The notes: generated by a model not told the origin, from the letters alone. A stretch of 64,000 nucleotides of DNA from Psammoneis japonica (GCA_008632985.1 QPGO01000007.1:124001-188000); one strand, 5' to 3'; shown: positions 1 through 64,000, counted from the first letter of the stretch. Numbers and translations are program-made.

Positions 1-480
1 GCAACTCCTCTTCACCACTTGTCTTCTTGTTTGTTGTTGTTGCTCCCTTTTTTGTGTGGGGGCAGAATGAAGCCCACTTCTTGACAGCGGTGTTCTGAGA
101 AAGAAAAATTCCTCAGCAGCTGGCAAGCAAGATGACATGTGTGCAGAACAGCTGTTGTGAGCAAGGCTCAAATCAGTGACTGCAAAAAAAGCAATTTGTG
201 GATGTGAGGCAGCTGCATTTGTTGTTGATGCTCTCACATCATGGCTGCAGTTTGTGAGCACTTGTTGCAAAGTTGTTGATGCTCAGCTGTGCCTCAACAA
301 CACATTTGGCAGGTGGTTTGTGTGCTCATGAAGACAGACAGTGCACTCAGCAAAGGGCCTCAGTTGTTGGTGAGACACACATCATCTCATCAGCCAACCT
401 CTTGAAAGAGTGCATGGAGCTTCAATCTGGTCATTTGCATTTAATGTCATGTGCTCGGAGTGGGGCCAAAGCCAAACTTG
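1..480 (+). repeat. Decayed duplicate of 6600-7140 (part of a segmental duplication of the RME-8 upstream region)
   Basis: Collinear matches such as ggcagaatgaagcccacttcttg (61) vs ggcagaatgatgaagcccacttcttg (~6653), and gttgttgatgctctcac/tgtcatg...ctgcagtttgtgagcact in both copies. Confidence 0.85.
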
Positions 481-1399
481 GCAAAGCATTGAGTGTCTCA
501 CTCCACTCTGCACACTTGCTTCATTTGACACTCTCTCAAGCATGTGATCTTGGATTGACCCAGAGGCTCAGTGGGCTGGGCTGCATCTTTGTGCATGCAG
601 GACCCAAGAATGAGAAAGACAAAGCACCCATCTTTTTGTTGTTGGGCCCCCAATGTTGCCATGGGTGCTTTCTTCTTTTGGTTGCAGAGCTTCTGTGCAA
701 TCTTTTCTTCCACCACCTCTGCTTTTGTGGAAATGTTTGGGGCAGCAGCGGCACACCAGTGCAGGTCATGACCATGCAGTGGCTCAAGGGTGGCACTCAG
801 TGAGGTGTGGCTTTTTGAAGGAAAAGCTTGGTGGTGAAAAAAGAGCCCAAAAGAAAGAGTGCCAGAGTCTCAGTGCTCAGTTTGCAGGTGAGCCCAGAAA
901 ACAGAAATGCCACCACTGGTGCCAACAAGTCATTGGGTCAGTGCCTCAACTGGGGGTTGCTCTCCAACAATGTGCTGTCCCAGTGGCCCACTTCTGCTTG
1001 CACCAAGCAAGCTGCTTTTCCCACCTGACAGCTGCTGCTTGCTCTCCAAAAGCACCAGCCCTTCTTGGGTTGGAGACAGATGAGGGGTTGAAGGGAAAAA
1101 TGCTGTGGTGTGCATCCATGTGGCACCGTCCACTTGTCACCACTCACAGAGTTGTTGGGCCAAAGCAAATCCAGTGGCTGCCATTTTTGGATTTGCTGCC
1201 AGTGTTCCAACACCAGCTGTCCACAAGCATTGTCAGTGCTTGAGAAGTCAAATGCTCAAATCATGTGCAACTCTGGGAAGTGGGACAGACTGAGAGACCC
1301 AGTGGCGGGCAATGGCACAATGCCCTCAACATTCTGTGCCTGTTTCAAAGCACTTTTCCATGTCCAATTGACCAAACAAGGCAAAGTGCATTTGTTGCA

Positions 1400-2400
1400 A
1401 GACTTCTCACCTGTGCTCCACAGCAGCTTCACAGGTCATCCAGCAGAGCCACCAGCTCCATCATTGAGCACCTGAAAGAGCCAAATGACAAGTGCTTGCA
1501 TTGCTTGTTGCTTGTGCATCATGTGCCTTTGAGTCAAGGGTGTTCTGTCCCACACCTGGCACAGTTTGCTCTGCCTGGAAGAGACCAGCCATGACAGAGA
1601 CACACTGCACATGACCTGCACTGAGCAGAAATTTCTCTGCACAATGTCAGTCAGTGCATTTGACAAAAAGGAGAAACAGGTCACAGTGGGTGTGTCAGCA
1701 AAGATGAGATCACAAAGGAGCTGGGTAATCACCAGAGGCATCTGCAAAAGTCTGTGAGTGGCAGCAATGCCAACTCAGCATGTGGGTGAAACTCAAAGGC
1801 CTGGTTCAAAGCCATGATGTGGCCCTGCATGACCTCTCCAAACTCAGTCAAAGAAAAAGAAGAAGACAGCCTGCTGGCATTTGTTCAGTGTTTCCTTGGG
1901 TGTGGATCTCATGGACACTTCCATTGGGAAAAGGGAGAAACAAATCAACCATGAAAAGACAGAACTCACCAACATGCTTTTGGTTTGATTCAGTGCACAA
2001 TGGCTTTGTTGCTGCTTTCCACCACCATGTGCAGAAGTTGCTCTCTGTTGGAGGAGCCTGCTGGCACAGCTGGGTGCCACATCATTTCCCTCAGCCAGAC
2101 AGTCACCAGGGGGTCACCTTGTGGCACCACATTGTGCATTTCTTCTGTCCTGTTGCAGTGCAGTGGCCTGCCTTCATCCAGAACAAGGTGATCTTTTCTT
2201 GGGAGCCTTCTTGCTCAAAGAGTTGATTGCTGAATGACGGCATGGTCATGCACAATCCAGCATGCTTGCATGCAAAATTTTTCATTCCCACAAGGCTGCC
2301 AAATCCATCACTCAGATCCAAACCAGCAAACTTTCCCAAGGTCAAAAAGCAACAGCCCTCCATCAAAAGGTGCAGTGCTGTCACCATGGCATCAACCCAC
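1400..2400 (-). mobile_element. Possible heavily decayed Ngaro/DIRS-like RT-RNase H remnant
   Basis: Minus-strand LDLSDGF..LV..NFAC resembles DLSDGFWR..NFAY of these RTs. FADASG and WDRTP downstream loosely resemble RNase H motifs. Very degenerate. Confidence 0.3.
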
Positions 2401-3659
2401 CAGACATGCTGGTCTGATCTTTGACAGGAAGATTTGCCAGCAGTGCACATCACCAGGGGCCCAGTCTGGAAATGACATTCCAGGATGACACCCAGTCAAA
2501 GAGCTTTTTTGGCACAGAGCTTGTTGTTTGTTGTTGGCCATGCCACAATGTGCATGACACTCCAGCTTGTCACCTGGAGTGCAAAGACTCTTGTGCTTGG
2601 TGGAGGCCACAATGCTTGGCTCAAAGACCCAAGTGTCACTCAGAAGCTCAGCACCAATGCAACCTTTGTGCTCTTCATCCCTGGCCATGACTTTGGTGCA
2701 TTCCTGCTCATTGACAGTTTTGCTCTTGAGACCTTGAAGAAAGATGGCATCCCAGACAAAGACAGGCACATTGCTGGGGTTGACAAAGAGTGCTTCTTTC
2801 TCTTTGCTGCAGCAGCTTTCATGTGATGAAGGCCCGCTTTGGCATGATGGGAGTGTGGGCCACCAGCGGGGCAAGTGTGAGGGTGGGTGGGAGTGCAAGG
2901 CCCCTGTGCCACAGGGCTGTCTGACAAGAAGTGACTGTGCTGCATTTGGAGAACAACAAGTCCATTGCCAGCAATGGCCATCTCCTTGGCCATCACCACA
3001 TTCCTCCATGGCCTTTTGATGCAGCCGCCGGGCACATGGCAGGCTTCAAAGACATGGCACTTGTGGCACTGCTTTCAGACTTTCTTGTCTGTGCTGGAAG
3101 AGGGCACAACAGTGGAGTTGTAAGAGCATTGTGGTGTGCTTGCTCTCTTGTGTCTCACAGCCCTCCTCTTGTTCCCAGCCTGGGCCAGGGCCCTGGCCAT
3201 GCAATTGTTGGTCTCAATTTTGTGCAGGGGAAAATGCCAAATGCTGTGATGGGTGGTGGAGCAGTGGGCAACATGTTGAAACATCCAGAACAAGCAGGCT
3301 GTTGAAGAGAAGACTCACTTTGACTCCTGACATTTTGGATCTGGTGACACCTTGCATGCAAATGCACACTCTCATCAGAGATCTCACCAACCTTCTTTTT
3401 ATCTCACTCTTGAGAGTGAATCATCTGGTTTGTGCAAATTGTGTTTTGCTTTCAGTGGGTGCCTGTTGTGCTGCAAGAACAAAGTTCGTTGAGGACTTGT
3501 TCCAGGCAAACCACAGGAGCCACCACAGCAACCACGACAAGCATGACAAGTGGTGCAGGAAACCATGCAGGATTTCCTTTTGGCAACATTGACTTGTCAG
3601 TTCAACACAATGCAAAAAACATGTGCACATTGCACATGCATGTGTGGACAACAAGAAGT

Positions 3660-4040
3660 GTGTGCCACCAGCTTGCCAAACTCATTTTGGTCACACCATT
3701 GAGCCACCCCGGAGCAAGAGCCCATGAGAAAATGGCATCCCTGATCAGTGAAATGAACCAAAATGTTTGGATGGGCCATTGCATGCATGAAAACATTTGC
3801 AAACAAACACAGCATGCTGTGAAAACTTCTGCACCACATGACAGGCAGACAACAAGGCACAACATCAACTCTGCACACACACCTGAGACACTGACAAGCC
3901 CCCCCCCATGCTTGCTGCAGGGGTGAGGTGTTGACAAGACAAAAAGAAATGAAGTTGAGTGCACACCATTGGAGTGCCTCAGTCAAAAATGAAGTTTTGT
4001 GTTCATCATCTCTTGTTCTGATGATCAAATGATGTTTAGA
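3660..4040 (+). repeat. Decayed duplicate of ~7210-7590 (RME-8 upstream region)
   Basis: caccattgagccacccc.gagcaag.gcccatgag.aa.tg.cat.cctgatcagtgaaa is present at ~3695 and ~7246, and gtcaaaaatg.agtttt at ~3982 and ~7535. Confidence 0.85.
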
Positions 4041-4099
4041 AGCTGAGTGCTCAATCTTGTTGCTCCAGAATGCCAGACAAACTGGCCCAGTGGACAACA

Positions 4100-4640
4100 C
4101 CTCAACGTTCCACACTTGCTTCAAAAAGCATTTTTTCATGTCCAATCAACCTCGCATTTATGGCAACACTGTCCCCACCTGCCATGCTCCACAGCAGATG
4201 CACAGGTCCACCATCTCCATGTCAAGCACTGATGGTCATTTGCTTTTCCTGGGTTCAGCCCCAGAATCCTTGTTCACTTTTGAGCTCCAGAAAGCTGATC
4301 CTGTGTGTCCCTTGACCACAGAGCTCTGGCACATTTCAACAGAAGCTCCAGCAAGTTGTGTGCATTGCACCCCTTTTGTGAGCCCAATGAAAAGAACAAA
4401 CACAGCAGGCTGCCATGGCTGCTTGCACAGTTGTTTGGGACCCTTCATTCATTGGCCACCCTGCAAAGTTCAAATTGTGTGATTGAATGCTTCGCTGCCT
4501 CTGCAACAAAGGTGGGTTTTAAAAACCCAGTTGAGTGTCTCCATGGCAGGGTGCATTGGCCAATTGCAAAAGGAAGGGCTTCCTGCAGGTCCAGATTGTG
4601 ACATTGTTCCACTGAAGGTGATCTGATGTTCCAAAACACT
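4100..4640 (-). mobile_element. Possible decayed Gypsy-type integrase fragment
   Basis: HPAMETLNWVFKTHLCC and GPKQL...PWQPAVFVLFIG resemble the HPG zinc finger and PW..VAVDLIGP of Gypsy integrases. Frameshifted. Confidence 0.3.
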
Positions 4641-4883
4641 GCAAGTGGTTGGAAGACCCATCACCTGAATCATCCACTTGTTTGTCCCAAGCTCAAAACA
4701 CCATGCTGGTGCCTTTTGTGGTGGGGCTGCTGCTTTTGTTGGTGGTGAGATGGGAGACTCTCATTGACCAGGACAAAGACCCCACTTGTTGTTTTGTGCA
4801 CTTTGCCCCAGTTGTCCTGCAAGAGGGACAACCCATCTGCACAGAATGAGGAGTGCTGGCAAGGTTTTTCAGAGACCTGCTGT

Positions 4884-5585
4884 GACAGTGCTGAGTGATG
4901 ATGCAATGCGTGTTGCTTGTCTTTTTTTCTTCTTTGTGCTGGCTGCCAATGCTCTGTCCCATTGTCTCTGATCTTGTGTCTCTGTGTGTTGGAGAGTGCA
5001 AGGAAGGGAACTTGGTGGTGGATGTGAAGAGTTTTGTTTTTGTGGCCAGCACACAAAAGTCAAAAGACCCAGCAACTCCAGCAAGAAGCAAGAAGATGAG
5101 ACAAAGATCCACCAGCACTCCTGTCATTGTCCCAAGAATGCCCACTGTCACAGCACAGGATTGGGCAATGGCAAATGCACTGACACTGAGTTGCCAGAAT
5201 TTTCATGAGCAGTTTCTTGTGTGGAAATCACATCAGACAATGCTGAGTGATGATGCAACGCATGTTGCTTGTCTTTTTTCTTCTTTGTGCTGGCTGCCAA
5301 TGCTCTGTCCCATTGTCTCTGATCTTGTGTCTGTGTGTGTTGGTGACTGCAAGGGAATTTGGTGGTGGATGTGAAGAGTTTTGTTTTTGTGGCCAGCACA
5401 CAAAAGTCAAAAGACCTGGCAACTCCAGCAAGAAGCAAGAAGATGAGATGAAGATCCACCAGCACTCCTGTCATTGTCCCAAGAATGTCCACTGTCACAG
5501 CACAGGATTGAGCAATGGCAAATGCACTGACACTGAGTTGCCAGAATTTTCATGAGCAGTTTCTTGTGTGGAAATCACATCAGAC
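4884..5585 (+). repeat. Tandem duplication, two units of ~352 bp, each carrying a decayed copy of the RME-8 5' leader
   Basis: Units start gaca(g/a)tgctgagtgatgatgcaa at 4884 and 5236. Both end ...gtggaaatcacatcagac. Confidence 0.9.
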
Positions 5586-6122
5586 TACAACCAGCAGCAG
5601 CAGCTGCTGTCACCAACTTTGCTTGCAAGCCAATCTGCCACCACAGCCAACCAGAAACAGCCACCTCTTCACCAGCAATGTGAGCAGTGCACACTCAACA
5701 GCAGCCAATGTCATGTCAGCAACAGCATGGCAGACAATGTGTCAGCAGCAGCTGCTCACACACTGTGGCAGCAGCAGCAGCCAAAAATGCACCACCAGCA
5801 ACTGTGGCCAGTGCAAGACTCAGAGTTGTCTTTGGAAGAGTCAGAAAGCAGTGGTGCTGCAGAATCCTCAGAGAGTGAGCATGCACATGACAGACCACTT
5901 TCACAGCTTAGAAACTTGGGTTGAGACTCAAATCTGTGCTGGCATCTGCACTGGTGGAAAGAATCTTGGACTCACTTCTGCTCCAGCAATGACCAAGTTG
6001 CACCAGCAAGAGCAACCACACATGCTCTTGAGGACAAAGCATCTGTTCCATCAGCCCCAAGTGACAAACTGTGTTTCTTGTGTGGTGAACAGGGTGTGCT
6101 CTGCTCTTGTGTTGGCACAAGG
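5390..6122 (+). pseudogene. Truncated, hypermutated copy of the RME-8 leader and first ~200 codons (source ~7620-8402)
   Basis: Translation EESESSGAAESSESEHAHDRPLSQLRNLG vs intact EESEGSSTTESSESEHAGDGPLSQLGKLG. DNA stays collinear to ctcttgtgt...acaagg. Frameshifted. Confidence 0.9.
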
Positions 6123-7804
6123 GTGTGGCACAAGGGTGACTTCTGCCTCCCCAGCATCTCAATGGAAAGCATGGTTTGATGTCATGGCAATGCAATGCAA
6201 ATGTCATGAAATGTTTGTGTGTGTGTTGTTTCACTTTTAATTTGGCAACGCATGTGATGGTGTCTCATCACACATCATCACAACCACATCACATGGTGGC
6301 ACCACATGCAAACACCAGGTGGAAAAAAGTGTGTGATTGAATGAAAAACAGGGCACACCATACCTGGCAGACTGCTGCAGAAAACAAACCTGCTGGACAT
6401 TGCCCTTGTCAGCTTTGGCTGGTGCAGCATTCCTTTTTTGCTCCTTTGTCTGAGAAGTTGAAAATGACTCTTGAACTCCAGCACATGGGAACTCACACAG
6501 GTTGAAGCTGTGCTGGCTGCTTGAACTCAAGATTCTGTGCCACAGTCACAACCAACATTTCTCAGCAATGTTGGGTGTCATGCAAAGCTGAAAATCAGCC
6601 ACTCCTCTCCACCCCTCTTCTTGTTTGTTGTCACTTCTCATTTTTGCATGTGGGCAGAATGATGAAGCCCACTTCTTGTGAGCAGCATCCTAAAAAAAGT
6701 CAACAGCTGGCAGGCAGGATGATGTGCCCAGCTTTTGTGTGCAGAGCAGCTGTTGTGTGCAGCTTTTGTGAAGCAGAACAGCTGTTGCACACAAGGATCA
6801 AATGGGTGGCTGCAAAAAAGGGTGATTTCTTGTGAGCTTGAAACAGCTGCACTTGTTGTTGATGCTCTCATGTCATGACTGCAGTTTGTGAGCACTGGCT
6901 GCAAGTTTTTTGATGCTCAGGAGCTGTGCCTGAACAACACACATTGGCAGGTGGTTTGTGTGCCAATGAAGACATGCATCGCACACTCTGCAAAAGTGCT
7001 CCTTCACTTGTTGGCAACCAGGCATCATCTCGCCAGCCAACCTCTTGTTGGCAGAGTGCGCAGAGCTTCAATCTGGTGTCAGCTGCATTTGATGTCTTGT
7101 GCTTGGAGTGGAGAGCCAGCCAAAACCAAACATGGCAAATGCCATGATGGGTGGTGGAGTGATGGGCGGTGCGAAAGATGTGCACAACGTGTTGTGCACG
7201 TGTGTGTGAACAAATGCAAAGTCGCCAACCCAAACTCACTCCGATCACCATTGAGCCACCCCTGAGCAAGTGCCCATGAGGAAATTGCATTCCTGATCAG
7301 TGAAACTGAAAATAAACCAGAATGTTTGGACAGACCATAGATTGTGAGATTGCCGCCAAGTTAATTGCATGACTGTCAAAACTTCTGTACTATGACAGGC
7401 AGACAACAAGGACAGCATCAACCCAACAACACACACACCCGAGACACTGACAAGACAACCCCCCTTGCTTCGGGGTGCGAGGTCTTCACAATAGATAAGA
7501 AAAAATAGTACACAATTGAATGGGTAATGCCTTAGTCAAAAATGTAGTTTTATATTCATTATGTTTTTTCGAATAATCAAATGATTATTTTTCCGTAAGA
7601 CGTCGATCTTGATCGTGTCGGCGGCACAAAAGACCGGGCGACACTGAACACGGACGAGCAACAGCAAGAAGACGTGACAAAGATCCACAAGCACTCCTTT
7701 CGTTGCCCCAAGAGCGCCCGCTGTTACAGTACAGGATTGGGCAACGGTGAAAGCGCCAACGTTGAGTTGCTAAAGTCTCTTAAGCGGTTTGTTGGGTGGA
7801 AATC

Positions 7805-7814
7805 ATGTCAAGCA

Positions 7815-7862
<48 letters not shown>

Positions 7863-10800
7863 CGCCGCCTCTACAACCTTCATTCGTGAATCAACCTACC
7901 ACCGCGGCCAACATGCAGCAACAACCGCCTCCTCAACAGCAAGATCAGCAATACATGCAGCAGCAGCAGCAGCAGCAGCAGCAAATGATGTACCAGCAGC
8001 AACAACTTATGCATGATCAGCAACAGCAGCAGCCGATAATGCACCCTGAACAGCACCCGAAGGTGAACCCTCAATTCCAACAACAGACGCACCCTATACA
8101 AAATTCAGAATCGTCGTCGGAAGAATCGGAAGGCAGTAGCACTACGGAATCCTCAGAGAGTGAGCACGCTGGTGACGGGCCTCTCTCACAGCTCGGGAAA
8201 CTCGGTTTGAGATTCAAATCTACACCGGTATCTGACGGACAGAATCTTGGATTCACTCCTACTCCAGCCATGATCAAGTCTCACCAGCAAGAGCAATCGC
8301 ATACTCTCGAGGGTGAATCGGAACGCCCGCTCTATCAATTTCAAGTGACAAAATTACGTTCTTGGCGAACGGGATACGTTCGGCTCTTGTGTCTGTACAA
8401 GGATCGTTTCTGTACCTTCGATCCAGACTCGCATCAAGTGACAAACACATGGCCATACTCCGGTTTGACGGAATGGTTGGTACTGCCCAAGGAAAAGGAC
8501 ACCATCCTGATACAGGCCAATGCCGACAAGCTCAAGTTCAAGTGTGAAAACGTTCGAGCGTCCCTCGTCCTGACGGCGTTGCTCGAATGCAAAATCAACA
8601 GCGAGGGAGGCAAAAGCACAGAGCCGTTTCCACTCTTTACGTCTTGTGTCCGCCAAACACGGCACGCAACACGCATTCCCGTGGCACTCGAGGTGGCGCC
8701 CCACGGCCTGGTGGAGCGTCATGTTGCCACTCGCCAAGTGATTCAGACCTATCTCTACAGAGACGTCGCGTCGGTCGCACTCACGTCGGACGACACGAGT
8801 GGACTCGAAATTCGAATGATGTCACCACGATTGATTCCGAAATCTCGACTCTACTTTTGTCAAACAAGTACTGGTCGTCAAGGACGAAGTGAGATTGTCA
8901 CGCTTATGCGTGAGAATTTCGAAGTGCTAGGTTTGGAGCTGCAGATGAGTGAAAGCCGAACGGCACAAGCTTGGATGGATCAACGTCATGCTCTCGGAAA
9001 AGAAGCTGGTCCAATCGTGGCATCGTGGAATGTCACCAAATCCACAAGGCGTCATGATGCTTCCATCGTTGGACCGGATCAGGGATGGACTGGTGGAACC
9101 GTGTCGAGGCGGTTGGCCATTACCGGTCGTGCGTGTTTGATGGAGATGGATTCCGGTGGTGTCGTTTCTTGTCGTCGTCTCGCCGACTTGCATGCGTTGG
9201 TGCGACACCGGAGCGATGAAATCACATTGGAATATGTCAGTGGGAGTCATCGAACCTACACGTCGTCGAACCGTGACGCCTTGTTGGTTTCAATCTTGGA
9301 TGCAGCCACAACTCGTGGAATGAATCCCACAGTGCATGTGACAGACGTGACGAGTGGAGGGTACTGCCTGACAACCTTTCATTCCATGGAGTTTAACTCT
9401 TCCATTGCACCACCAAAGGCGACCTCGGGTATATTCCATGCGATATCCATCCCGATTCACTGTCTCAAGCAACTCCACGCCGTCTCGACAGCCACGTACG
9501 CTTTCTTGGCGCACGGTTCAGAGTCGTCGTTGCACGCGGGAGGGCCTCTCAAGGTTGTAGGAGAATGCAGCAGGGTGCTGGAGGCCTGTCGTGAGTTTAA
9601 TGCCAGCGTTCCTCCCACTGGAGAGGGACTACCAGCTTCGCTGACAGACAAGCTAATTCTGGGAAGCGCCGGTGCGTTGTGGGGTATCATTTCGAAACTT
9701 CTGCACCGCAGTCCTTCGCAAGACGGTCGCACGGAAAACAGCCGCGACTGGCATCAAGCGGAACTGATTGCCTGTCCCATCTTTCAGGCTCTCTTTCGGT
9801 TGACACAGACACCAGCCGGTTACAAGGGATCGGTGGAGCTGACGACTATGCAGGCATGCATTCCACTTCTGCTGGGCCTCGACGATGATTTTTGCCAGTT
9901 CTGGGCGTTGCGTGTGCTTGGTGTCATTATTTCCGGACCCGTGGCCGCTGACGAGCGTGATAGAGAGATTGAATATGTAAACAAAAGCGTAATATTGAGG
10001 TCTGGTGGGGAGAGTATGGTCGAGGGCCTGGTGTCCACTCTGCTAGATCCCGGTTCGAAGCAACCTGGTGGACAGGAACAAGTTTCCGACTTGATTCTAA
10101 TGGTAACAAGCGATATACTTCAGAGCGTCTTGTGCTCTCACCATGACACGACTACCCCAGAACATTTTCAGCGCTTTATCGATGCGTTGGCAAAGCGGTA
10201 AGTCTCTTTGTTCCCTTGTGCTACTATGTTAATGCTTGTTGCAACTCACTCGAGCACACCATCTTTATCTTTCAGTCACCGCGCACTTCTTACGGCATTG
10301 ATGGCTACAACCCCATTCATCATTGAGAATACAGCGTTACTCCTTCATCTACTGACGACGCATGCACCTCACACTTCGACCGCCATTAGGGATGCAGCTC
10401 TGAGTTCCGGGATTTTGTTGCAGCATTTCTATGCGGCCAATTTCAGTCCATTAGAAGGTCAGCGATTCTTGAGTCGTTATCTTTGTAGTGTTTGGTTATC
10501 AGGACCAATGGAGTGTGACGAGAAGAGGTTGCTAAAGAGGATGGTTCCAACGGGTTTCCTTGGCTATCTGAAGATGCCTCCGCTGAGCCGAATGGAAGAA
10601 GAACAGCTAGATGCGCTGGAGCGAGATGCAACTGAGGAAGGGGTTGCAGAGAATGACCAGCATACGACAGACGATACAAAACCCGACTCTTCGGCGTCTG
10701 GAACTAACACGGCGCGTCTCAGATCTAGAATAGCTGTTGCTACCGCGAATGCACCGGGAGACGCTACCCCGGAGAACTTTCGTATCTTCTTCCATGTTCT

Positions 10801-18042: not shown

Positions 18043-18088
18043 ACATTATAATATGCTGACACTGCGCACGAATCTCCACTTCTATCAT

Positions 18089-18246: not shown

Positions 18247-18406
18247 AAAAATGCACTTCGGTTCGCTGAACGGCAGTATCAATGTCTCTCTAGAGCAATC
18301 GATTCGTTGCGGTTCATGTTAGGAACATTGAAAAGTATTGGGAGCCTTATCTACTGCGATAGACAGCCTCAGAAGGGAAACGCTAAAAAATTATCACAAT
18401 ATGTAT

Positions 18407-40302: not shown

Positions 40303-40335
<33 letters not shown>

Positions 40336-49910: not shown

Positions 49911-50025
49911 GCCTTTGTCTATCCAACATGTGTCTTTCCTGTGAAAGAATGAAGCAAATTGGTCCAGTGGTTGATGAGACATGGCTGCATGAAGCATGAT
50001 GAAAAGCTGTCCTTGGGTGCATCCC

Positions 50026-51130: not shown

Positions 51131-51644
51131 GCTCTTTTGAGAACAAGAAGAGGGTGCCCTTCATGCAGACATCCAACCATGGCTCATTTTGCCTTTTGTC
51201 TCGTGTGCCAAGATTGCCAACCACACTGCTCTCCTGTTGCTTTCTCTCTTTGAAGCTGCAGAAAGTGCCCTTGCACACTTGTCCCACCCTCTCAAGGAGC
51301 TTTCTTGTTTGCTGTGTTTTTCTGTCAACCTCGCTCTTTGCAGCCTTTTGTCATTGACCAACCTTTGGCTGCTTTTTGACACATCAACCTTTTCATGAAG
51401 AAAGTTGGAGGTGCCACCCCACCACCATTTTCAATGAACTGCATGTTCTTTTTTTGTGACATGTGGGAATCCTTGCACAGCCCGTGGAGGAGAAGCCCAC
51501 GTGCAGTGAGCATGGAACGCACCCACCTCGTGACGTTTGACGAGGCAAAATGACCCATTTCTGACTGTCAGGGTCATTTCTCTCAGACATTTAAAAATTT
51601 TGAACGCGCTTGCGCAAGACGAAAGCAATGGCCATCACTCTCCA

Positions 51645-51991
51645 GATGCATTCCAGCTCCAGGTGGGACCTTGTGCTTGCTGTGCTGTGACATCAAGAGT
51701 TCATTGTTTCATGCTCCCCATTTTGTGAAGCCAAAGGCTTCCCATTTTCAACATTTGTGAGAACGAAAATGCACTGGGTGTGTTCTTTGATGTCTGCAGA
51801 ACACACCCGGGCATGCTGTTGATGACATGCTTCAAGTGTGAAGGAGGAGATGCACTCACAAAATTGTCTCTTTTTCTGTTGGCAATTGTCCACATTTTCA
51901 TTGCGCTTGACAAATTTGCTGCGGAGCTTGCGCGTGGAATTCTGTGGGCCCAATGTCTCACAAAAAGTCCCACCTGGGGCTGGAACCCATC
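51645..51991 (+). mobile_element. MITE copy 3 (same TIRs and ends, partly different interior)
   Basis: gatgcattccagctccaggtgggac ... ttctgtgggcccaatgtc...gtcccacctggggctggaacccatc. Confidence 0.75.
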
Positions 51992-53879: not shown

Positions 53880-56800
53880 ACCAGGGCACATGGGTTCCAC
53901 CTCATGACGCCCTGTGCACGCACATTGCAGCTGCCCCCAACGGGCTCCACCCTCATGTGCAAGCCAGTGCTCAAGAGGCAGAAGAAGTTTGCACTCGAAA
54001 TGCCATGTGCACGCCTTTTGAGTTTGTTGGTCTACTTCTGCCAGTGCCGCTCAGCCCCAAGGATGCCTGCACTTGGGTCCATGGAGCAGCCACAGCCGCA
54101 AACAAGGCTGCTGACATTGCACCCCTGCTGGACTGCCCAAGGGCAGCATGATGTGCAACTCAAAATGCACAGCTTCAGTCTGCTGTGGCACAGCCTTGGC
54201 CTGCAATGACCCACCCACCAAATTCTGCCTTGATTTGAATTTTTGACTGCAAGGTGGAGCGAGACCTCCCGGGTCACAGCAGCAAAGCGCAACCCCAAGC
54301 ACAGCATTTTCAGCCTGTTGTGGCAGCTGTTGGAGGTCTCACCACAGAGCAGTGACAGCAGTGACTGGATGACGATGCCAGGTGAGCCACCACCTCATGT
54401 GGCAAAACTCCTGGAGAATTCTGGAGTGCCTTTGGCATCACCAAAATTCTCCGCTGGTGCCAGTCCTACAACAAAGCAGCCCTGCCACCATTGTGGGCTG
54501 CACTTGCTTCAGCTCCCAAGACAGGCCACCTGGCTGTCATTCAGAATGCCATTCATGAGCAACGCCACGCACTCCAGGTGTGTTTTGACCTGCCAGTCAC
54601 CGTGAGTCTCTTTGCCAAGCTGGCTCAGCTGGATTTTGCTGGCCACAATCAAGAAGAGCCCACACAAGGGATTGACCCTTTCTTGTTCAGCCTCACCACC
54701 CCACAAGCTGTGGAACAAATTGCCTGCCAAAATGCCGTGCATTTGCAGATCCATGGAGGCACCAGATTTCCTCACCCCAGGACACCCAGCTCCTTGAGGC
54801 ACCAGACAAAGCACTGGTGGCTGCCACAATGCAGGCAGCCATGCAGTCACATGACAGGTGCCATCTCATTTTTTCAGCAACAAGGGTGATGACCATCCCG
54901 TGGTGCAGTGGCTCACTTTGAAACATGCCGACATGGACTGGCACGCCAATGTGGACCTCCAGCAACATGCACAAGTGGAGATCCACTGCTGGTTTGTGTC
55001 CCAAGCAGCCACACACCAAGCAGTCCCCTTCGTGGGGTGCAACATTGTTCATGAGGCAGCAAAGGGGGCCATGTCCTGGCAATTCTGCTTGCCCCTGTCT
55101 GTGTTCCCTGTGACAGCGGCAGCCCCCCACCACCAGACCAGACCAACCCAGCACCACTGCACCAACCCCGTCTGACACTGCACGGGTGGGCACCAACAGC
55201 ATTGTGCGCAACCTTTCCTGTGACTCCCGGTTTGCAATGCTGCATGACCGTCCAAATGTGCACTCTCACGATGTCAAACTGTGATGTGCCAGGGACAAAA
55301 TTGAGCCACCCAAAGATGACCAAGGACACATTTGCTAAAACCCTCATCACATCAAAGGACAATGCAATTCCAACTGTGGCTCCAGCTGTGATCACCACAA
55401 TGATCACACTGATGCTGAGCAGCAGCGCTTCCTTGCCTGGGGTGAGGAACACTGGAAGACCAAATGGGTCTTTGGCAATGGCACAAGTTCAGGGACTTGT
55501 CACCAAGAGCCTTTGTTGGTGTCGGCCAAACGGCTGGCACATCCACAACCCCAACTGTAGAGAGTTTGAAATGGCAGCGCACCCACCCCACTGCATGTGG
55601 ACAGGACATGGCTGCCACAGTTTACAATGATGAATTGGGTGAGCACATTTTGACAGACACTGCTTTGTTGCATTGTGAAGGACTCAGCTGCTTGTTGCAT
55701 CATCGCAGCAGCAGAGGCAATTGGCCCACCCGCTGGACCAAAGCCGACAACACTCAGCCCACAGGTTGCTGTCCATCTGCAAGCACCAAGGTGCCCCAAT
55801 CACTGTCACTGATCCACCATGGACACATGCTGAGCTAGATGCCAGTGTCACCAGAGGGTCGCATGAGTCTGCCTGTGAGCATGTCGATTTTTTGTGTGAT
55901 GACATGGCTGATGTGGTTGAAAAAGGGTTCTGGACCATTGTTCCACACTCCGAAGCATGCGACACCCCAGGCTTGCACCTCAGTCCCATTGGTGCAGTTG
56001 TGCAGCATGGCCACCAACCACGTCCAATCATTGACTGCACCTTTTGTGGTCTCAATCCAGCCACTCAACCCAACACTGCCATTGAATCCATGAAGTTTGG
56101 GCGTGCATTCGACCGCATTCTCTGATGCATCCTCCTTGCCAATCACAAACACAGCAAGGTCTGCCTGATGAAGATTGACCTTGCCGACGGCTGCCACAGG
56201 ATGCAGCTTGTGCCCAACCGCACACCCATGTTGGGTGTCACATTTCCCAACCCACCTGGAGAACCACCCCTTGTTGCCTTCCCAACTCACCTCCCTGTGG
56301 GATGGGCCAGCTTGCTGCCACTGTTTTGCACTGCAACTGAAACAGCTGCTGACATTGCCAATTTTGACATCATGCGCAACATGCAACCACCCCCGCACCA
56401 TTTGGAGTCATTCCTTCAGAGCCGGCCTGAGAAGCATCAACTGCCGCCAACACCTGATCCATCCCATGCCGTGCCTGTCCCCACAGCTCCCGATCCACAC
56501 CTGCAACACCATCACCACAGATGCCTCCAGCAAATCGAAACTCATGTTGACGATTTTGCAGGAGCTGCACAAGGGTCACACCGGGCACGTCACAACCTCC
56601 ATCAGGTCATCCTCCATGCATTGGATGATGTCTTTTGACCACTTGACTCACTGGACCCTGCCACCCACAAGGAGCCTGTCTCTGTCAAGAAGCTCTGCCA
56701 GGGTGATGCAACTTGGCACCACTTTGCACCAGGACTTCCCTCACACACGTAAATGTGCAACCGCCACAGACTTCCACAAGCTCTTGGGTGAACTTTGCTC

Positions 56801-57258
56801 ACTTGGCATTGCACTGCCAGGCTCATGGGGTTTGTGCTGTGAGCTTCAAAAGAACCTCCAGCACACCACTCAGGACTCCCGGGTCTGAATCACTCCCAAC
56901 TCACACTCCACTTAAGATGATTTTTGGTCACTTGAACCCACCCTTGAGTCACAACCTGTTTGCACTCAGGAGCTTGTTCCATTGCAACCCATGCTCACTG
57001 GCTGCCATGATGCAGCCGGCCATGGTGCATGGTGCAGGCGGCGTGCTCATTCTGACAGACACCACTGTCCCACGAGCCGCCAAACTCTGCTTTGCCAATG
57101 GCCGTCACTGCATCCAATGTGATGCAGGACCCATTGTGTGGTGCACGCCTTTCCCCAAATGCATTGCCTCCCAGCTTGCCACCTGCAAAAACCCATGTGG
57201 CCCCATCACCAACAATGATTTGGAGCTGGCGGGCAGTGTCATCCAATCCCATGCCACT
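53880..57258 (+). mobile_element. Decayed Ngaro/DIRS-like retrotransposon (gag-like ORF, RT, RNase H), cut by the Copia LTR
   Basis: LSPIGAV..PRPIIDCTF, ESMKFGRAFDRIL, KIDLADGCHR, LPVGW..FCTATET, HVDDF, GAGGV, ITNNDLELAG. Confidence 0.8.
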
Positions 57259-57534
57259 TGACAGAAATTGAAGGCAAATGGCAAGAATTCAAACAACAAC
57301 TCCTTGCTGCTGTCTAAACAGCAGATGAGTCTCCACTCAGAGACCGTCACAGGAGCCGAAAGACGTGCAAGTCAGCACAATCGGGCTGCTGTTGTCATTC
57401 TTGTGAGCCTTGTGGCTCGAAAGCAAACTGCATCACGCGCAAACGCGCGGAACTAAAGCACACAAAACTGTGCACGGTGAACTAAACAGCGCGCGACATT
57501 TCGCGCGCACCCAAATCCTGTTCAAATCCTGTCA
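57259..57534 (-). repeat. 3' LTR of the Copia element (276 bp)
   Basis: Ends TGACAG...CTGTCA. Preceded on the minus strand by purine tract GGGGAG just after the RNase H region. Confidence 0.75.
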
Positions 57535-60500
57535 CTCCCCAGTTTGCTTGAGGAGCCACAGAAACAGACTCGACTTCAGATGGAATGAAGTTCCAGAACA
57601 TGAGGGGGCGCAGAAGGTCCCAGATTTGGGAGCAACCCCAATGCTTGCTGAGAATGTCAGCAGGGTTGCGGGAGCCTTCGATGAAGTGGAGCTCAAGGCA
57701 ACCAGAGGCAATCGCCTCACGCACACGGTGGAACAACAGTGTGGTGTGTCGCTTGTGTAACTTGGAGTGTGGGATGGTGGCACTGTCTACAACCGACTTG
57801 TTGTCACCGAACATGCAACTGACATTGCGGATCGGGACGCCAAGGTGGCGCAGGGTGATGCGCAGGTCGACAATCTGTTCGACACAAGTCCTTGCGGCAA
57901 CAAATTCAGACCCGCAGGTCGCAGTCTCCATGGTGGCTTGCTTCTTAGAGAACCAATCAGCCGGGAATTTGTTGAGGAAGTGGAGCATTCCCATGACAGA
58001 GCGTCCGGTGAGCATGCAATGGTGCAAGCTTGCATCGACGTAGTGGGCGGCAGTGACGAACTTGCCAAGGGGCGGTGGAGCGTCCTTCAGGATCATCTCT
58101 TCTGCTTCGCCGTGCACGGAATGCATCCATTCACAGGCCGGAGCAGGGAGATCCGAACAGTCGGGCTCTTCCGTGCGAACGCGGAGAGCGCCGTGTTGCA
58201 TCTTGGAGAGGCACCCACAGACGCGTTTGGCACGATCCAAGTGGCCTTGACGGGGTGCAGCTCGGAAGCTAGAGAGTGACTTGACGGCCGTGGCAATGTC
58301 AATTCGACCAAGGGACACTGCCCATTGGAGTGAACCAACAAGAGACTGGAACTTGTGAATGCCATCGGGCTCCAGCAGTTCGGAAGTGTCCAGTTCGGGG
58401 TGGTCACCCTTCTCCAGAGGTGACAGGGCATTGGTGGCAGGTTTCTCCCCAAACAGTCAGGTGCAGCTGTCGACCATGCGCTCGATGTACTTGCGCGGAG
58501 ACAGGCACAAGGTGCCGTCGGGATCCCGGGAAAAGTCGCAACCCAGATGGAACTCAATGGGTCCCGCACCCTTGAGCTTGAACTTGCACTTTTCCGTGAG
58601 AGTGTCGACAAAAGATTGAGGGTCCTTCACAGCAATGGCAAGGTCATCCACACAAACGGCAATGTGTTCACAGTGGTCGCCGTTCCTGCGCATCCAAATG
58701 TCGGGTTCGGCGCGGCAGGGGAAGAAGCCTTCAGCTCGCAGGCAGTCGGCGAAGCGCTCATGCCAGCGGAGACCGGAGCTGCGCAGTCCACACAGGGCCT
58801 TGTGGATGACAAGGATGTGTCCTTCGAGTTTGCCAAATTCGGGTCTGGCTGCAATGTAGAGCTTCTCCTTGGTGGTGGCTTCAAGGCAGGCATTGCCAAT
58901 GTCGGTGGCCCATGTCTCCAACTCGTTGAGTTCGGCCAGGAAAATCATCAGCCGAAGGCCACGGAGGGAGACTGCTCCGGAGTGGACACTGTCGATGGGT
59001 ACGTCCGTGAGGTGCCCATCGGCTGCGAGTTGTGCTTTGTGGCGACCGTCGTGTTTCACGTCGCACACCAGGTGCACTCAGATCTTCTTGTGTCCAGCAG
59101 GAGGAGTGGAAGACTCGAAGGGCCCGCAGTCATGGAAGACTTCGTATTCCCCGAGTTGGTCCATCTCGAGATTAGTTGCGTCTCCCCATTTGCGGTTGCC
59201 GTTGCGTTCGTCTGGTGACATGGCATGTTTGCAGTTCTGGGGAACTTCGCATCCGTGCTTGCAGCGAGGTGCAGTGCGGAAGGAGCGAAGCTTGGCTTGG
59301 TTGGCCATGCGAAATGGCTTCTTCTGGTGCCTCGCGATGGTGCGGAACCGCTTCCAGCCATCAGTGTCGAGAAGTCCGTTCTCTCGTGCACAGATGGCGC
59401 AGGTGACGGGGTCATCCTTGGTGATGATGGCAAGAGGCTCGGACGTGATCTCCCCACTTTCCCATTCAAGCATGATGTTGTAGCTTGAGCCTTTCCAGGT
59501 TGGGTCATGAGGCTTCAGAGGTCCTTCGTGTGACACGATGTGTCGAAATTTCCAAACAGCAGTGTCTTCGTCTTCTCGCTCAATGTGATTCATGATGTCG
59601 TTGCAGGCAAGGACTTCCTCGCATTCATCATTGTTGACAGAGCAGACGAACTTAGTGAGCTTGGGATTGCCGTTCACTTTCCATTCGTGGTCTTCGACGG
59701 CCTTGACGATGCGAGCTCTGTGGCGTTGTCCGTCCTCTTGTGGCTGCATGAGGAAGGTGCGTCCGATGATGTCTTGCGGATCGAAAACTGGCATCTTGGG
59801 TGTCCTGATCTCCCCATCAGGAGAATCGACGGGGTTGTCGTCATGGCGAGATTTGATGATGGGTTCAGGTGGCTCCCCATCAGGAGGATCAAGATGCAGG
59901 TTTCGAACGGGCAGGATCGGTGGCAGCGGATCGTACGTTGGACCGGCAGAGGATCTTCTGAGTCTCGTCAGAGAGAATCTTGAAGGTCATCTGGTGGCCG
60001 ACGTGCTCAGCAATGCCAACAAAGCATCCACGCAACTCACGGGATTCGGATGGCCAATCGGAGTCATCGAGGTGGAAGTGCACGGGTTCCCACCAGTGAA
60101 AGCGAAGCAATGGGCTGATGTCCGGGGTGGAGCCAGTGAGAGTCTCGAGGGGCGTGCGCCAGTGGAGACGTGGGGACGCTGCATGGTTGAGCATGAAGCA
60201 CACGCACATGAGCGCCAGCAGCCATGTGTGGGCAGGTGAACCGAAACGATCCATGACAGTGTTTGCCATGCGCTTCACGGTCTGGTGTCAACGCTCGGCA
60301 AAGTTTTGGTGTTGCTGGTGAGGCTCACTTTGCCAGCTGGAGATGAAGAGGGCTCGTAGAATCCCGAGCACCTTGTTGCTGATCTCAACTTGAGCACGGT
60401 CGCCAATGAGTTTGGATGGGGCACCACGCTCACGGATCTGATCCTCGAGTGTGTTGACAAACTCCTTGTCCGTCTTGGTGCCACAGACGTCAGTGACGGT

Positions 60501-63500
60501 GGACTCGGTGCCAACAAACAGTTGGGCGCTGGTGCAGCCAGAGTCGACGGCCGGGGTGTCGGCACAAATGGTGTCAGTGGCGATGGGCTCGTTGCGGCGG
60601 TGCACATTGAGGGCGGGGTTGGGTGATTTGTGGGCCTTCCTAAGGTGTGCACTGGCGGGCATGCGGACGCACTGCGTGGTGCAGTCAAAAGTGCGACGGA
60701 CCGTGTCGGCAGGTGGGAAGCCAAAGTGAGGCCGAAGAGACTCGAAGGGGGGGTCCTTGGGCTGCACAGTGCGCTCTGGGGGCGGAACGTCGTCGTCCTT
60801 GGGGTCAATCGCGTGTAGATGACACTCGTAGAACACGTCATCGTTCGGAATGAGGTGATCATCAAGGGCGGATGCGTGATCGGCAGACAAGGAAGCGGAC
60901 ATGATGGCCTCGTTGACAACGACACGATGACGGCAGTTGCTGCATTCGTCAAATGGGTTGGCAGTGGGATCATCCTGCAGGTCAGAGATCGCGTCGTGCC
61001 ACTGGTCATCGTCAGTGACAGAGTGATCGAGGACGGAAGGATCCCATGTGTCATCACCGGTGAGGATGACATGGGGCAGGGTGTCCCATTCGGCGTCAGT
61101 GCAAGGTCGCATGGCAACACAAGGCAGGCTGCCCTTGATGTCAATGGGGATGACATGGCCATCAGGAGTGGCAACACGTTGCAAGCCGTTGGGCACCTTG
61201 ACAGAGCGATCGTTGACATCCTGTTTGCACCACTCGAGCTGGCCGCAGGAATGGATGGTCTTGCCCTTGCCCGTGCATGTGCACTGATGGAGGATGGTGA
61301 TGACGGGACCACGCTGGGTCTCAATGACGGCACCCGCGGTGACAACAGGGATGTCCACCAATTGATGGTCATCAATGCCCTGAACGTCGACTTGGCGAGA
61401 GGTGCGTGCAATGACGCAAACGTCGTCGCCAGCAATGCCGCCATTGGCCCCACGATCGACCAGAGCACCAGTGCGTGTGGAGCGATGAGCAGAGGCAGAG
61501 CAAATGACATTGTGGTTGTCAACGCGACGGCAAGTGCGGCCGTTGAGTTCTGTGTCATCGGCAGAAGCTGGCGGGGTAGAGGGAGTGGAGGATGGCCCCG
61601 GTCGACTGGCGTTGGGGGCTTGGTTAGGAGACAACAGACGTTGCAGATCACCGGGTGGCAGTGGCTTGCGCTTGGTGAGGTGCGCCAGGATGGGATCATC
61701 CGAAGTGGCATCCACACTTGGAGCGGAGTCACCAGAGTCAGCAGGAGTCGTGTTGGACAAGTTGACATCACCGTCACTCCCAAGGCGTTGGTCGTGAAGG
61801 TTGGCCGCAATGGACTCATGGCAGTTGCTGGCTCGCGGGTTGCGGGGAGGCGGACGAGAATGCTCAAGGATGATCGCCTTGGAGGAATGGGGCAACGAAT
61901 CCCAAATCCGTTGGTGGTCGGGAGGGAGACGTTTCCATTGGTCGCCGGTGAGGCTGGGACCACGGGTGCAGGCAGCATTGGCCTGAAGGACGTCAATGTC
62001 GCTGTCAATGTCGTAGAACACATCGTCGGACGGTTCCTCGGAGTGGACATCGTGTGCGCACATGGCACGTCAGGGAGCTCGAGGTGTCGTCTTGGGTTGA
62101 AACGCACTGTTGCATTGAGCCGCTGCGGAGAGGAGCAAGCCACAGCATTGATCGCACGTGAGGCTCTTGCCACTCTGCGCATGATGCTGATCAGCTTGGT
62201 TCTTGACAGCACGGAGTTCCTCGACAGGGTGTGCGGCATTCTCGAGCATGATGCGCTTCTGTCCTTCAGAGAAGTGGTCACTGGCCGGGATGAGTGCCTC
62301 GTGCTTGCGCAACTGATCTTGCCAATGAAGGATGAACCCGTGGGTCAGACCTTTCCAAGCAACCATCACCAAGACGTGCGGTGGTGAGGTGCGCGAGCAA
62401 GGTGGAGGACTCGACAGATGCGCGGGTGGAGGCAAGCGCACACTCAGACAAGGCGCGGCAGACGGTCTGGGCGTCAGAAGACCCCACATTTTCGCGAATG
62501 AGAGCCTTGCCCTTGTCGGTGAGAAGAATGCGTTCGAAGACAGCGAACATGCACTTTTGCTGTTCAGCAAAGAGCAGTTTGTCTTCGGGGCTGGTCGGTT
62601 TGTACGACGAGTCTAGAATGCACTCGACATCTTGGGCACGGGCTTGTGCCACAAGTGAGGTGTGCCAAGTGTGCCACTGCTTGTCGGATTTGAGAGCCGT
62701 GAAAGCGGTGGGGTCACGCTTGATGCCTCGCTTGAAGTCTCGCACCGGGTCGCGTGCCTTGGTCGGGTTGGTGACATGCAGAGGTGCGATGGGTGAGCTG
62801 CCGACGGACACAGAAGACATGCAGTCGGGGCTGAGGCGGCAGGCAAGGAACTCGTCATGCGTGAACAACGAGGAGTCATTGGCAATGTCAAGACCTTCGT
62901 GTGCTTTGACAATGTACAGACTAGTTGGAGCTGCTAACATGTTCTTATAACCACGGGGCAAAGGGATCACATCAGTGCCGTTGTCGCACTCAAGCGAGTC
63001 GATTTGGGACGGTATGAACGTGAACAGTTCTTGATGCGAGTCCGTGCCGTCTTGGGTCAAAGCCAAACGAAGAGGGCTCCCAGCACCTTGGGCAAGCACA
63101 GTTCCAACAATGTGCTCGAAACCATCGGTTTGTTGCTGACGAGTGAGAACCATGGCAGACAAAAGTGGTGTCAGGACAAGCAATTCTTGTTGGGAAGCGA
63201 AGGTAGACTTGAAACTTGGGTGAGAACAGACTTGACTTGAAGTGGACTTGACTTGAAATCTTGAACTGCCTTAAAATCAGAAGTCGCCGGGCTGTGCCAT
63301 CCCGTTCGTTGTCAAGTGCTAAACTTCCTGTCTGGTCCGTAGAGTTGTGCCGGCACGTCCAAACCCACAGCCAGTGGCGCTTTGGGTTGCTTGCAAGCGG
63401 AGCAGCGGGTTGTAAACCCCTGCAGGTGAGCTGACTAGAGGTGGACAAGACCCCCGAACCGTTCTCATTTTACATCGGTTGGATTTCCCGATCAGGCTGG

Positions 63501-64000
63501 CCAGTTGACGCAGGCGTCAGGCGCTGTGGACGAACGAACAAACGCGGGAAAGCACCCTTGCCCCAACGCAGGCTGCAATCACGGCTGCTTGCTCTCACAG
63601 TCGTCCTCGTGGACCTGGCAGAACTGCAGAGCACCAGCAGTCCGGGGCAGATCAGGTGCAATGGACTCGGTGTGCTTGCAGAGTGGCAGCAAAACCGCAG
63701 TCCGAAGAGTGGGTGCAAGTTCTTGGCCGTGAAGACATGCACACACACATGTCTTCAGCGACGAAGATCCTTGAACATGTGGGGTTCTTGACCGTTGACC
63801 GATGAATGGGTGTGTCAAGGGATGAGGATCAAGGATGGACTTGGATGTGACCGTTGAATGTGTGTCTTCAGCGATCAAAGGCAGTGTGATCAATCCAGAC
63901 ATCCAGCGGCAAGGAGACTTGACGGTGACGTTAACTTCCTGCCGATGCCCTGGTGTTGAATGCGCGCAGACTTGCCGATGTACGTAGAATGCACACGGAG
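57259..64000 (-). mobile_element. Ty1/Copia (CoDi-type) LTR retrotransposon: gag, PR, INT, RT, RNase H; 5' LTR not seen within the window
   Basis: gag RDFKRGIKRD; PR ALVDRGANGG; INT SEPHQQHQNFAER; RT DIGNACLEA, KALCGLRSSG, CVDDL; RH ETATCGSEF, FGDNKSVV, NPADILSK. CGA>TGA stops at 59078 and 58457, plus frameshifts. Confidence 0.93.

Follow-up and report, generated by a model that had tools for sequence, protein, structure and literature searches.

Based on the dinucleotide composition of a 64,000-nucleotide (nt) stretch of the Psammoneis japonica genome (GCA_008632985.1, QPGO01000007.1:124001-188000; referred to below as the window), domains were identified in which the dinucleotide TpA has been converted almost completely to TpG or CpA. 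The affected sequences include a copia-type retrotransposon, a reverse transcriptase (RT) relic, and a duplicated fragment of a host gene, while most of the affected DNA is of unrecognised origin. We are highly confident that the process behind this pattern is real and specific for TpA. Taken as a whole, the data appear to be best explained by a TpA>TpG/CpA mutation process that acts on chromatin domains, perhaps through adenine deamination, and on balance this is the explanation that we favour. The domains and islands from which the argument starts are listed below, with the ratios of observed to expected dinucleotide counts (O/E).

1-7300: depleted domain A; TA O/E 0.03, CG O/E 0.06, GC content 49%; TpA and CpG both nearly gone
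7301-20600: normal island 1; TA O/E 0.56, CG O/E 0.96; RME-8/DNAJC13-like and kynurenine-3-monooxygenase-like (KMO-like) genes
20601-46399: depleted domain B; TA O/E 0.07, CG O/E 0.28
46400-48610: normal island 2; TA O/E 0.58, CG O/E 0.96; open reading frame (ORF) 47104-48417 on the minus strand, no family assigned
48611-57565: depleted domain C; TA O/E 0.06, CG O/E 0.38

Over the whole window, the O/E values were 0.19 for TA, 0.51 for CG, 1.58 for TG, and 1.64 for CA, and the TpA O/E was 0.25 or lower in 47 of the 64 1-kb segments. For counting, depleted DNA was defined as positions 1-7300, 20601-46399, and 48611-64000 (48,489 bp in total, ~76% of the window), and the O/E values of the normal islands, positions 7301-20600 and 46400-48610 (TA 0.56-0.58, CG 0.96), served as the baseline for expected dinucleotide counts. 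The depleted DNA contains 198 TA (O/E 0.07) where ~1,708 were expected and 1,100 CG (O/E 0.36) where 2,893 were expected, together with 5,270 TG (3,406 expected) and 5,341 CA (3,698 expected). Thus, the 3,303 missing TA and CG dinucleotides are matched by 3,507 extra TG and CA. At the resolution of 200-bp bins, the edges of the domains are sharp, and lie at ~7200-7400, 20600, 46200-46600, and 48600. The original prediction, made by a model from the sequence alone, had noted that TpA is nearly absent outside ~7310-20600 and ~46680-48610; sliding O/E values confirm this, with edges close to those positions. Genes that share the same spectrum at neutral sites were named there as a contrary outcome, and this is not what we see: introns, intergenic, and upstream sequence within the large island, 2,015 bp of non-coding DNA in all, have a TA O/E of 0.65 and a CG O/E of 1.03. 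The sparing of the islands is therefore regional, and is not due to codon selection.

The direction of change could be read from a fragment of the RME-8-like gene that lies duplicated in domain A, upstream of the intact gene.

3676-6122, plus strand: mutated copy paralogous to the promoter and 5' coding region of RME-8 (self-blastn, 66-80% identity)
7784-18042, plus strand: ORFs of the RME-8/DNAJC13-like gene (Pfam), with short GT..AG introns

The depleted segments 3676-4033, 5087-5230 (a tandem copy), and 5434-6122 align to intact positions 7230-7585 and 7663-8402; the paralogue also holds an internal tandem duplication (4884-5238 / 5236-5585). Dinucleotide outcomes were counted in the two unique paralogue pairs, with the intact gene copy as the ancestor-like reference. 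None of the 35 TA dinucleotides was kept (16 became TG, 10 became CA, and 9 had other outcomes), and none of the 39 CG was kept (16 became TG and 16 CA). When A>G changes were sorted by the 5' neighbour, 16 of 31 TpA sites (52%) were affected, compared to 14/93 at ApA, 6/111 at CpA, and 5/62 at GpA (5-15%), in agreement with the predicted enrichment of A>G at TpA on either strand. T>C changes affected 10 of 34 sites at TpA versus 8-19% in other contexts, while C>T changes affected 41% of sites at CpG versus 5-19% elsewhere. The partner copy at 7230-8402, which is the expressed one, retains its TA and CG and is unmutated. The RME-8 fragment underwent depletion after its duplication. Foreign DNA with an intrinsically TpA-free composition was considered as a source of the domains, and is ruled out by the changes in a paralogue of a host gene. 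Spliced contigs of an RNA-like sequencing run, X2, cover only positions 7993-20000 and none of 1-7337; lack of cover was not taken as silence.

Two copia-type elements provide a second and separate reading of the direction of change.

57566-63153, minus strand: nearly full-length polyprotein of a copia-type long terminal repeat (LTR) retrotransposon, in three frames; TA O/E 0.11, CG O/E 0.85, GC content 57%
24707-25567, plus strand: degenerate copia-type RT relic (tblastn, 24-28% identity to seven homologues)

The larger element aligns by tblastn to residues 1-1880 of protein P0213 with two frame changes, and has a Pfam match to RVT_2. Compared to 26 homologues longer than 1,000 amino acids (aa), its polyprotein is poor in Tyr (0.5 vs. 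3.9%), and rich in Cys (3.6 vs. 1.2%) and His (5.0 vs. 3.2%). At the 16 columns where at least 70% of these homologues have Tyr, the element has 2 Tyr, 9 Cys, 4 His, and 1 Phe, while other conserved residues are retained in 282 of 310 columns; at 50 sites with Tyr in at least three of seven homologues, 25 Cys, 12 His, and 4 Tyr are found. In the RT relic, the positions opposite the Tyr of homologues contain 5-7 Cys, 1-2 His, and no Tyr. The initial observation that conserved Tyr codons read Cys or His in every recognisable transposable element protein thus holds for both elements; its scope is limited, since these two are the only such proteins that can be recognised. Selection against TpA was also considered, and is ruled out by the loss of conserved Tyr in dead elements and by the equally affected non-coding DNA.

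As relatives of the element, the best 80 of 466 confirmed matches in metagenome contigs were used. TA O/E was 0.48-1.00 in 78 of these 80 loci, and the copia family therefore does not intrinsically avoid TpA. A 612-nt RT segment could be compared with 27 gap-free relatives, a position being called conserved when at least 85% of the relatives agree. Six of the seven conserved TA were changed in the element (four A>G, two T>C), compared to 8 of 261 other conserved positions, which would imply a rate of TpA change tens-fold above that at other positions. Fourteen CG dinucleotides are shared by half or more of the 27 relatives, and the element retains 12 of them. The same replacement of Tyr by Cys or His is seen in metagenome loci L056 (positions 6-614, TA O/E 0.13) and L072 (positions 438-1031, TA O/E 0.26), whose Cys or His outcomes at the same Tyr sites are different, and also in RT protein fragments P0221, P0224, P0232, and P0234 from ENA and JGI assemblies. 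The process is therefore present in environmental populations. A trinucleotide mass balance between the element and its metagenome relatives (TG vs. CA by the 3' base) was uninterpretable, as their base composition differs.

The loss of TpA can be separated from that of CpG. Deamination of 5-methylcytosine (5mC) cannot remove TpA, and the process was predicted at the outset to be distinct from 5mC decay; the copia element bears this out, as its TpA O/E has fallen to 0.11 with a CpG O/E of 0.85, while in positions 1-7300 both are nearly exhausted (0.03 and 0.06). None of the 64 1-kb segments has lost CpG and kept TpA; therefore, TpA loss is the faster of two processes that operate on the same domains. 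Since both processes end in TG or CA, the GC content is ~50% where both are complete and 57% where only TpA is gone. Three pairs of local duplicates provide information about the timing.

35213-35322 and 35563-35672, plus strand: young local duplicate, 92.7% identity
39637-40263 and 40429-41082, plus strand: tandem duplicate, 89.6% identity
1-485 and 6598-7139, plus strand: direct repeat, 71-77% identity, both copies depleted

In the first pair, all eight mismatches are transitions; five of them oppose TA to TG or CA, and at one further site CA is opposed to TG, which places nearly all of the differences at TpA. In the second pair, 35 of 39 mismatches are transitions, with CG opposed to TG or CA at 18 sites and CA to TG at five, so that the differences reflect mainly CpG decay. 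In the longer alignment of the third pair (143-485 vs. 6773-7139), 69 pairings are concordant (TG/TG or CA/CA) and four are discordant; depletion therefore came before that duplication.

TG and CA are equally common in the depleted DNA, and their order along it is random (runs z -0.1; chi2/df 1.4 in 250-1000-bp bins); no strand-coordinated clustering of TG and CA outcomes was found there. Each TpA site is struck independently, on either strand. Together with the paralogue pairs and the sharp edges, the random order supports the domain-restricted A:T>G:C process at TpA, on either strand, that the original prediction had put forward. Survival of TA depends on its neighbours. Per kb, and relative to the normal islands, survival by the 3' base was 3% for TAT, 6% for TAC, 11% for TAG, and 27% for TAA. 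TTAA accounts for 48 of the 198 surviving TA, 5.3 times its share in normal DNA, while ATAT accounts for none of the 198 survivors compared to 32 of 549 TA in normal DNA, and NTAT/ATAN contexts are at 0.2 times their share. A process that favours target A bases with a pyrimidine on their 3' side also explains the roughly 2:1 ratio of Cys to His outcomes (25 vs. 12) at TAY codons (Y, pyrimidine).

A process of this kind was recently reported from a rhizarian alga, and the initial statement that no system with such a signature had been described is outdated by that report. Mettrop et al. (bioRxiv 10.64898/2026.01.13.699255) followed Bigelowiella natans in mutation-accumulation lines. Of the 302 nuclear single-nucleotide mutations recorded there, 231 fell into integrated nucleocytoplasmic large DNA virus (NCLDV) and virophage regions; A>G and T>C made up 230 of these 231, each of the 230 at TpA, at a rate of ~6e-7 per site per generation, ~1000-fold over background. 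In the ~95-Mb genome, 124 clusters of TpA-poor, CpA+TpG-rich windows are reported, TpA-poor coding sequences being enriched in RT and DDE-endonuclease domains; a single-copy NCLDV insert has a TpA rho of 0.45. The same preprint proposes an ADAT2-like DNA adenine deaminase, draws an analogy with repeat-induced point mutation (RIP), cites amphioxus ADAT2 as editing DNA and Trypanosoma ADAT2 as deaminating C in DNA, and notes in its discussion that ADAR favours a 5' U. Its signature is defined as a TpA rho of at most 0.43 with a CpA+TpG rho of at least 1.52 in clusters of three or more consecutive 1-kb windows; here, 43 of the 64 1-kb segments pass both thresholds, in long runs. In the accessible parts of the literature, our searches for TpA-specific hypermutation returned the B. 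natans preprint only, and nothing for diatoms or other lineages; what we say of diatoms rests on these searches. The available portion of a Phaeodactylum tricornutum mutation-accumulation paper describes a GC>AT bias and mutagenic CG, CC, and TG contexts and does not mention TpA, and such TpA hypermutation is likewise not mentioned in the available portion of a 2025 preprint on diatom transposable elements or of PMC2806351, on diatom LTR elements. The process seen in the window is very probably of the same kind as that in B. natans.

The results show a DNA-level process that turns TpA into TpG or CpA, through A to G in the 5'-TA-3' step of either strand. The process has come close to saturation in gene-poor DNA, presumably silent chromatin, and halts within ~200 bp of expressed genes. 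Any sequence inside the domains is struck, including LTR retrotransposons, the duplicated host-gene fragment with its promoter, other fragments, and unrecognisable DNA, which points to targeting by domain or chromatin state rather than by sequence homology. We consider such targeting probable, because fungal-type RIP would have mutated both copies of the duplicated region. The TpA change outpaces background substitution tens-fold, and also outpaces the decay of CpG, which would represent ordinary 5mC deamination, slower and on the same domains. As to the chemistry, adenine may be deaminated enzymatically in DNA, and the resulting hypoxanthine would pair with C. Among possible agents, the likeliest would be a deaminase of the ADAT2/TadA type, whose natural tRNA substrates present the target A after a U (the U33-A34 context). 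Adenine deamination by an ADAT2/TadA-like enzyme is a tentative suggestion, with chances that we put a little short of even.

The most serious alternative is a homology-triggered, RIP-like mechanism, in which duplicates would be recognised and mutated by a different chemistry; we regard it as unlikely. The mutated sequences include a duplicate of the RME-8 5' region, relics of transposable elements lie within the domains, and the authors of the B. natans study themselves draw the RIP analogy (bioRxiv 10.64898/2026.01.13.699255). However, the expressed partner copy at 7230-8402 is untouched while the upstream paralogue is saturated, the edges of the domains track gene islands and not repeat edges, and the hypermutated NCLDV insert of B. 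natans is single-copy. Self-comparison detected few internal repeats in the window, and the depleted DNA covered by X1, a set of independent contigs, is mostly single-copy. Over positions 1-7456, eight of ten bins had a 31-mer depth of ~64-88 in X1, a ninth had 47, and the tenth 394, compared to ~55-59 in genes. The idea of repeat induction, a "reverse RIP" in the original wording, is thus not supported, and the description of the depleted DNA as repeat domains is only partly apt. The bin of high depth reflects a short repeat at 3336-4002 (31-mer depth 394, ~67 around it). Contigs with other copies of this repeat continue into DNA with TA and CG, indicating that the family is also present in undepleted DNA elsewhere.

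A modified base at TpA, such as symmetric N6-methyladenine (6mA), might deaminate or be misread in parallel to 5mC at CpG, both marks being placed on silent DNA. Such a mechanism, which we find slightly less likely still, would account for why both palindromic YpR steps (R, purine) decay in one set of domains and yield identical products, and for the symmetry of the outcome between strands. The uncoupling of TpA and CpG loss in the copia element argues against it, as does the fact that known eukaryotic 6mA lies at ApT in active genes.

Polymerase eta, named in the original prediction, would write A>G at WA motifs (W, A or T) during non-canonical mismatch repair triggered by 5mC-derived T:G mismatches. 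TA is the preferred WA motif, diatom LTR elements are documented to be CpG-methylated (PMC2806351), and small excesses of A>G at ApA (14/93) and of T>C at TpT (9/47) are present in the RME-8 pairs. All 230 A>G and T>C changes in the B. natans viral regions were, however, at TpA (bioRxiv 10.64898/2026.01.13.699255). The WA signature is expected to affect ApA along with TpA; here, the ApA excess is seen in one alignment, and in the depleted DNA as a whole ApA is undiminished despite a 96% loss of TpA (AA O/E 1.18 vs. 1.12 in the islands; 74 vs. 70 per kb). In addition, polymerase eta is not known to be linked to the 3' order of loss (TAT>TAC>TAG>TAA). The fit is therefore poor, and we consider this source of the changes improbable.

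A sequencing or base-calling artefact at a modified dinucleotide is highly improbable. Modified bases can cause systematic miscalls on certain sequencing platforms, and the platform of X1 is not on record. However, X1 contigs cover positions 1-20000 with 0-1 differences per contig from the window, one contig of 3,605 bp in depleted DNA having no differences; the TpA-free sequence of 1-7300 is thus reproduced, which meets an early concern that it might be a consensus artefact. A strand-mixed miscall should also yield CG and leave TA, whereas both are near zero in 1-7300. The same signature occurs in unrelated public assemblies, and Illumina sequencing of mutation-accumulation lines reveals the process in B. 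natans (bioRxiv 10.64898/2026.01.13.699255). Two single-contig differences between X1 and the window occur at single-copy depth: T>C in ccaTAcc at 6361 (TpA>CpA, within depleted DNA), and C>T in gcCGcc at 7354 (CpG>TpG, at its edge). They correspond to the two processes proposed here; with n = 2, they are only suggestive of ongoing change or of allelic (heterozygous) variation.

Least probable by our estimate, and hard to reconcile with the data, is editing of retroelement double-stranded RNA by an ADAR-like enzyme, fixed by reverse transcription: although a retrotransposon is among the targets and the 5' U preference fits, editing of this type would leave strand-specific A>G changes with the 3' G that ADAR prefers, whereas the two strands are equal, the outcomes are unclustered, the 3' order runs T>C>G>A, the domains form continuous blocks that end sharply, and a collinear promoter and 5' coding duplicate, as well as kilobases of unrecognisable DNA, are equally mutated.

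Several points weigh against the preferred explanation, chromatin-domain TpA mutation by adenine deamination. The identity of the enzyme is something that we purely infer, and the depleted DNA is presumed to be silenced solely on account of its lack of recognisable intact genes. A strict TpA enzyme would not be predicted to give the small secondary excesses seen at ApA (A>G, 15%) and at TpT (T>C, 19%). The paralogue comparison concerns one locus, at 66-74% identity and with much other divergence. The flank preferences are measured against a baseline that is mostly coding DNA, and new mutations may account for part of the surviving TA; for the preceding base, the predicted influence on whether His or Cys results goes no further than a trend (odds ratio 3.0, p = 0.16, n = 37). 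X1 is probably the assembly's own sample, so that its agreement with the window excludes a polishing artefact and not a platform-wide miscall. Finally, the nearest named relatives of the RME-8-like and KMO-like proteins are from diatoms (37-48% identity), and the placement of the host as a diatom-like ochrophyte alga would follow only from these best named protein hits.

The remaining genes and gene fragments in the window are as follows.

18407-19915, minus strand: KMO-like flavin adenine dinucleotide monooxygenase (Pfam)
27270-28157, plus strand: protein-kinase-like ORF in depleted DNA (Pfam Pkinase, E 2.1e-05, under the gathering score)
41678-41935, minus strand: C-terminal piece of a Ham1/ITPase-like gene (profile positions 123-176 of Pfam PF01725, E 6.8e-10)
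47104-48417, minus strand: ORF of 437 aa in normal island 2, a 2.2-kb island amid depleted DNA
50029-50649, minus strand: N-terminal piece of a Ham1/ITPase-like gene (profile positions 1-124 of Pfam PF01725, E 2.1e-22)

The RME-8-like gene has four GT..AG introns of 70-92 nt, at 10196-10275, 11115-11192, 14719-14790, and 15170-15263, as judged from a spliced X2 contig. Two further differences from the window were noted in X2: 167 nt at 12896-13064 are replaced by 16 other letters, and 78 nt at 18121-18200 are skipped, at the site of a tandem repeat of 79 nt in the window (18090-18168 / 18168-18246, 95% identity). Allelic, copy-number, or splice variation could lie behind them.

Outside the large island, 381 ORFs of at least 70 aa (140 + 150 + 91) produced four Pfam matches at E <= 0.001, namely, RVT_2, the two Ham1 pieces, and the sub-threshold Pkinase, so that by this measure most depleted DNA is without recognisable origin. 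Four longer ORFs of the copia region gave nothing when rescanned against Pfam at E <= 0.1, and no viral genes were recognised in the window. PDB sequence searches returned no match for the RT ORF or for the kinase-like ORF, which is probably a pseudogene fragment and might derive from the host, from transposable-element cargo, or from a virus. ORF 47104-48417 has no Pfam match, and in Atlas it gave only sub-threshold leads (0.87-0.89, below 0.9) to clusters of oomycete hypothetical proteins; the island that carries it represents an expressed gene or, alternatively, a very recent insertion. The two Ham1/ITPase-like pieces are collinear and lie ~8 kb apart in depleted DNA, with normal island 2 between them, and look like a pseudogene split by insertions. 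The N-terminal piece matches human ITPA (E 1e-25), the three human Tyr being represented by one His, one Leu, and one Tyr. ITPase cleans up deaminated purine nucleotides, and the presence of such a gene here may be a coincidence.

TAA and TAG are nearly absent from the depleted DNA, and long open frames are found in all six frames; 92 stop-to-stop ORFs of at least 150 aa were counted across the whole window. The long spurious ORFs of the depleted DNA result from the near loss of these two stop codons. Gene callers will over-predict proteins in such domains, and the predicted proteins will carry Cys or His in place of Tyr.

The features of the window supply concrete constraints in a search for the enzyme. 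A TpA O/E below 0.1 with TG and CA O/E values near 1.8 can serve as a compositional marker for genome screens. A natural A-to-G editor that acts in chromatin would be of interest to the base-editing field. A broader proposal, which we consider doubtful, is that chromatin-guided DNA adenine deamination is a GC-enriching counterpart of RIP and an ancient defence common to stramenopile and rhizarian algae, which would act on any silent DNA, not on repeats as such, and in some lineages would have rewritten most of the non-genic genome; under this proposal, the TAY preference would point to a specific and discoverable enzyme, a natural adenine editor of double-stranded DNA.

The pattern can be compared with several known systems. 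Decay of CpG through 5mC deamination explains the CpG>TpG/CpA part of the changes, for example, 18 of the 39 differences in the 39.6-41.1-kb duplicate. The loss described here is, however, not confined to CpG, as the copia element shows. Fungal RIP likewise introduces dense, dinucleotide-specific transitions into non-genic or duplicated DNA and kills transposons. RIP, however, consists of C>T changes mainly at CpA, which create TpA and AT-rich DNA, whereas the process seen here destroys TpA and raises GC, the GC content being 49-57%; moreover, RIP mutates both copies of a duplicate, whereas here only the non-expressed copy (3676-6122) was mutated and 7230-8402 was not. ADAT2/TadA deaminases and the engineered adenine base editors convert A to inosine, which is read as G, and the U that precedes the target A in the natural substrate corresponds to the T of TpA. 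To our knowledge, natural targeting of double-stranded DNA or of heterochromatin by this family is not established.

The closest likeness is to B. natans, the one rhizarian alga in which, in a single 2026 preprint, TpA-specific A>G genomic hypermutation has so far been reported (bioRxiv 10.64898/2026.01.13.699255). In both cases, TpA is changed to TpG or CpA on either strand in regions that lie beside a normal genome, and a long-term depletion of TpA is accompanied by enrichment of CpA and TpG. In the window, A>G and T>C changes at TpA are seen in 26 of 35 TA of the RME-8 paralogue that became TG or CA, and at 13 of 16 conserved Tyr that became Cys or His, with a comparable regional restriction. 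RT and DDE domains are enriched among the affected B. natans sequences, and a copia element and an RT relic are struck here. The two cases differ in that the host is a diatom-like alga here and a rhizarian there. Depletion in the window is saturated (TA O/E 0.03-0.11 over ~76% of its length), whereas the TpA rho of the B. natans NCLDV insert is 0.45. In the window, a duplicated piece of a host gene and further gene fragments are among the targets, and no viral gene was recognised. CpG decay co-occurs with TpA loss in the window, while CpG is not mentioned in the preprint's main text; a 3'-neighbour preference is seen here, while that main text makes no mention of flanks or trinucleotides. The mutation rate was measured in B. 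natans, and here there is only a relative figure (6/7 conserved TA changed vs. 8/261 other positions). What the window adds to the B. natans case is thus another lineage, saturation, retrotransposon and host-duplicate targets, edges that spare genes, independence from CpG loss, and the TAY preference.

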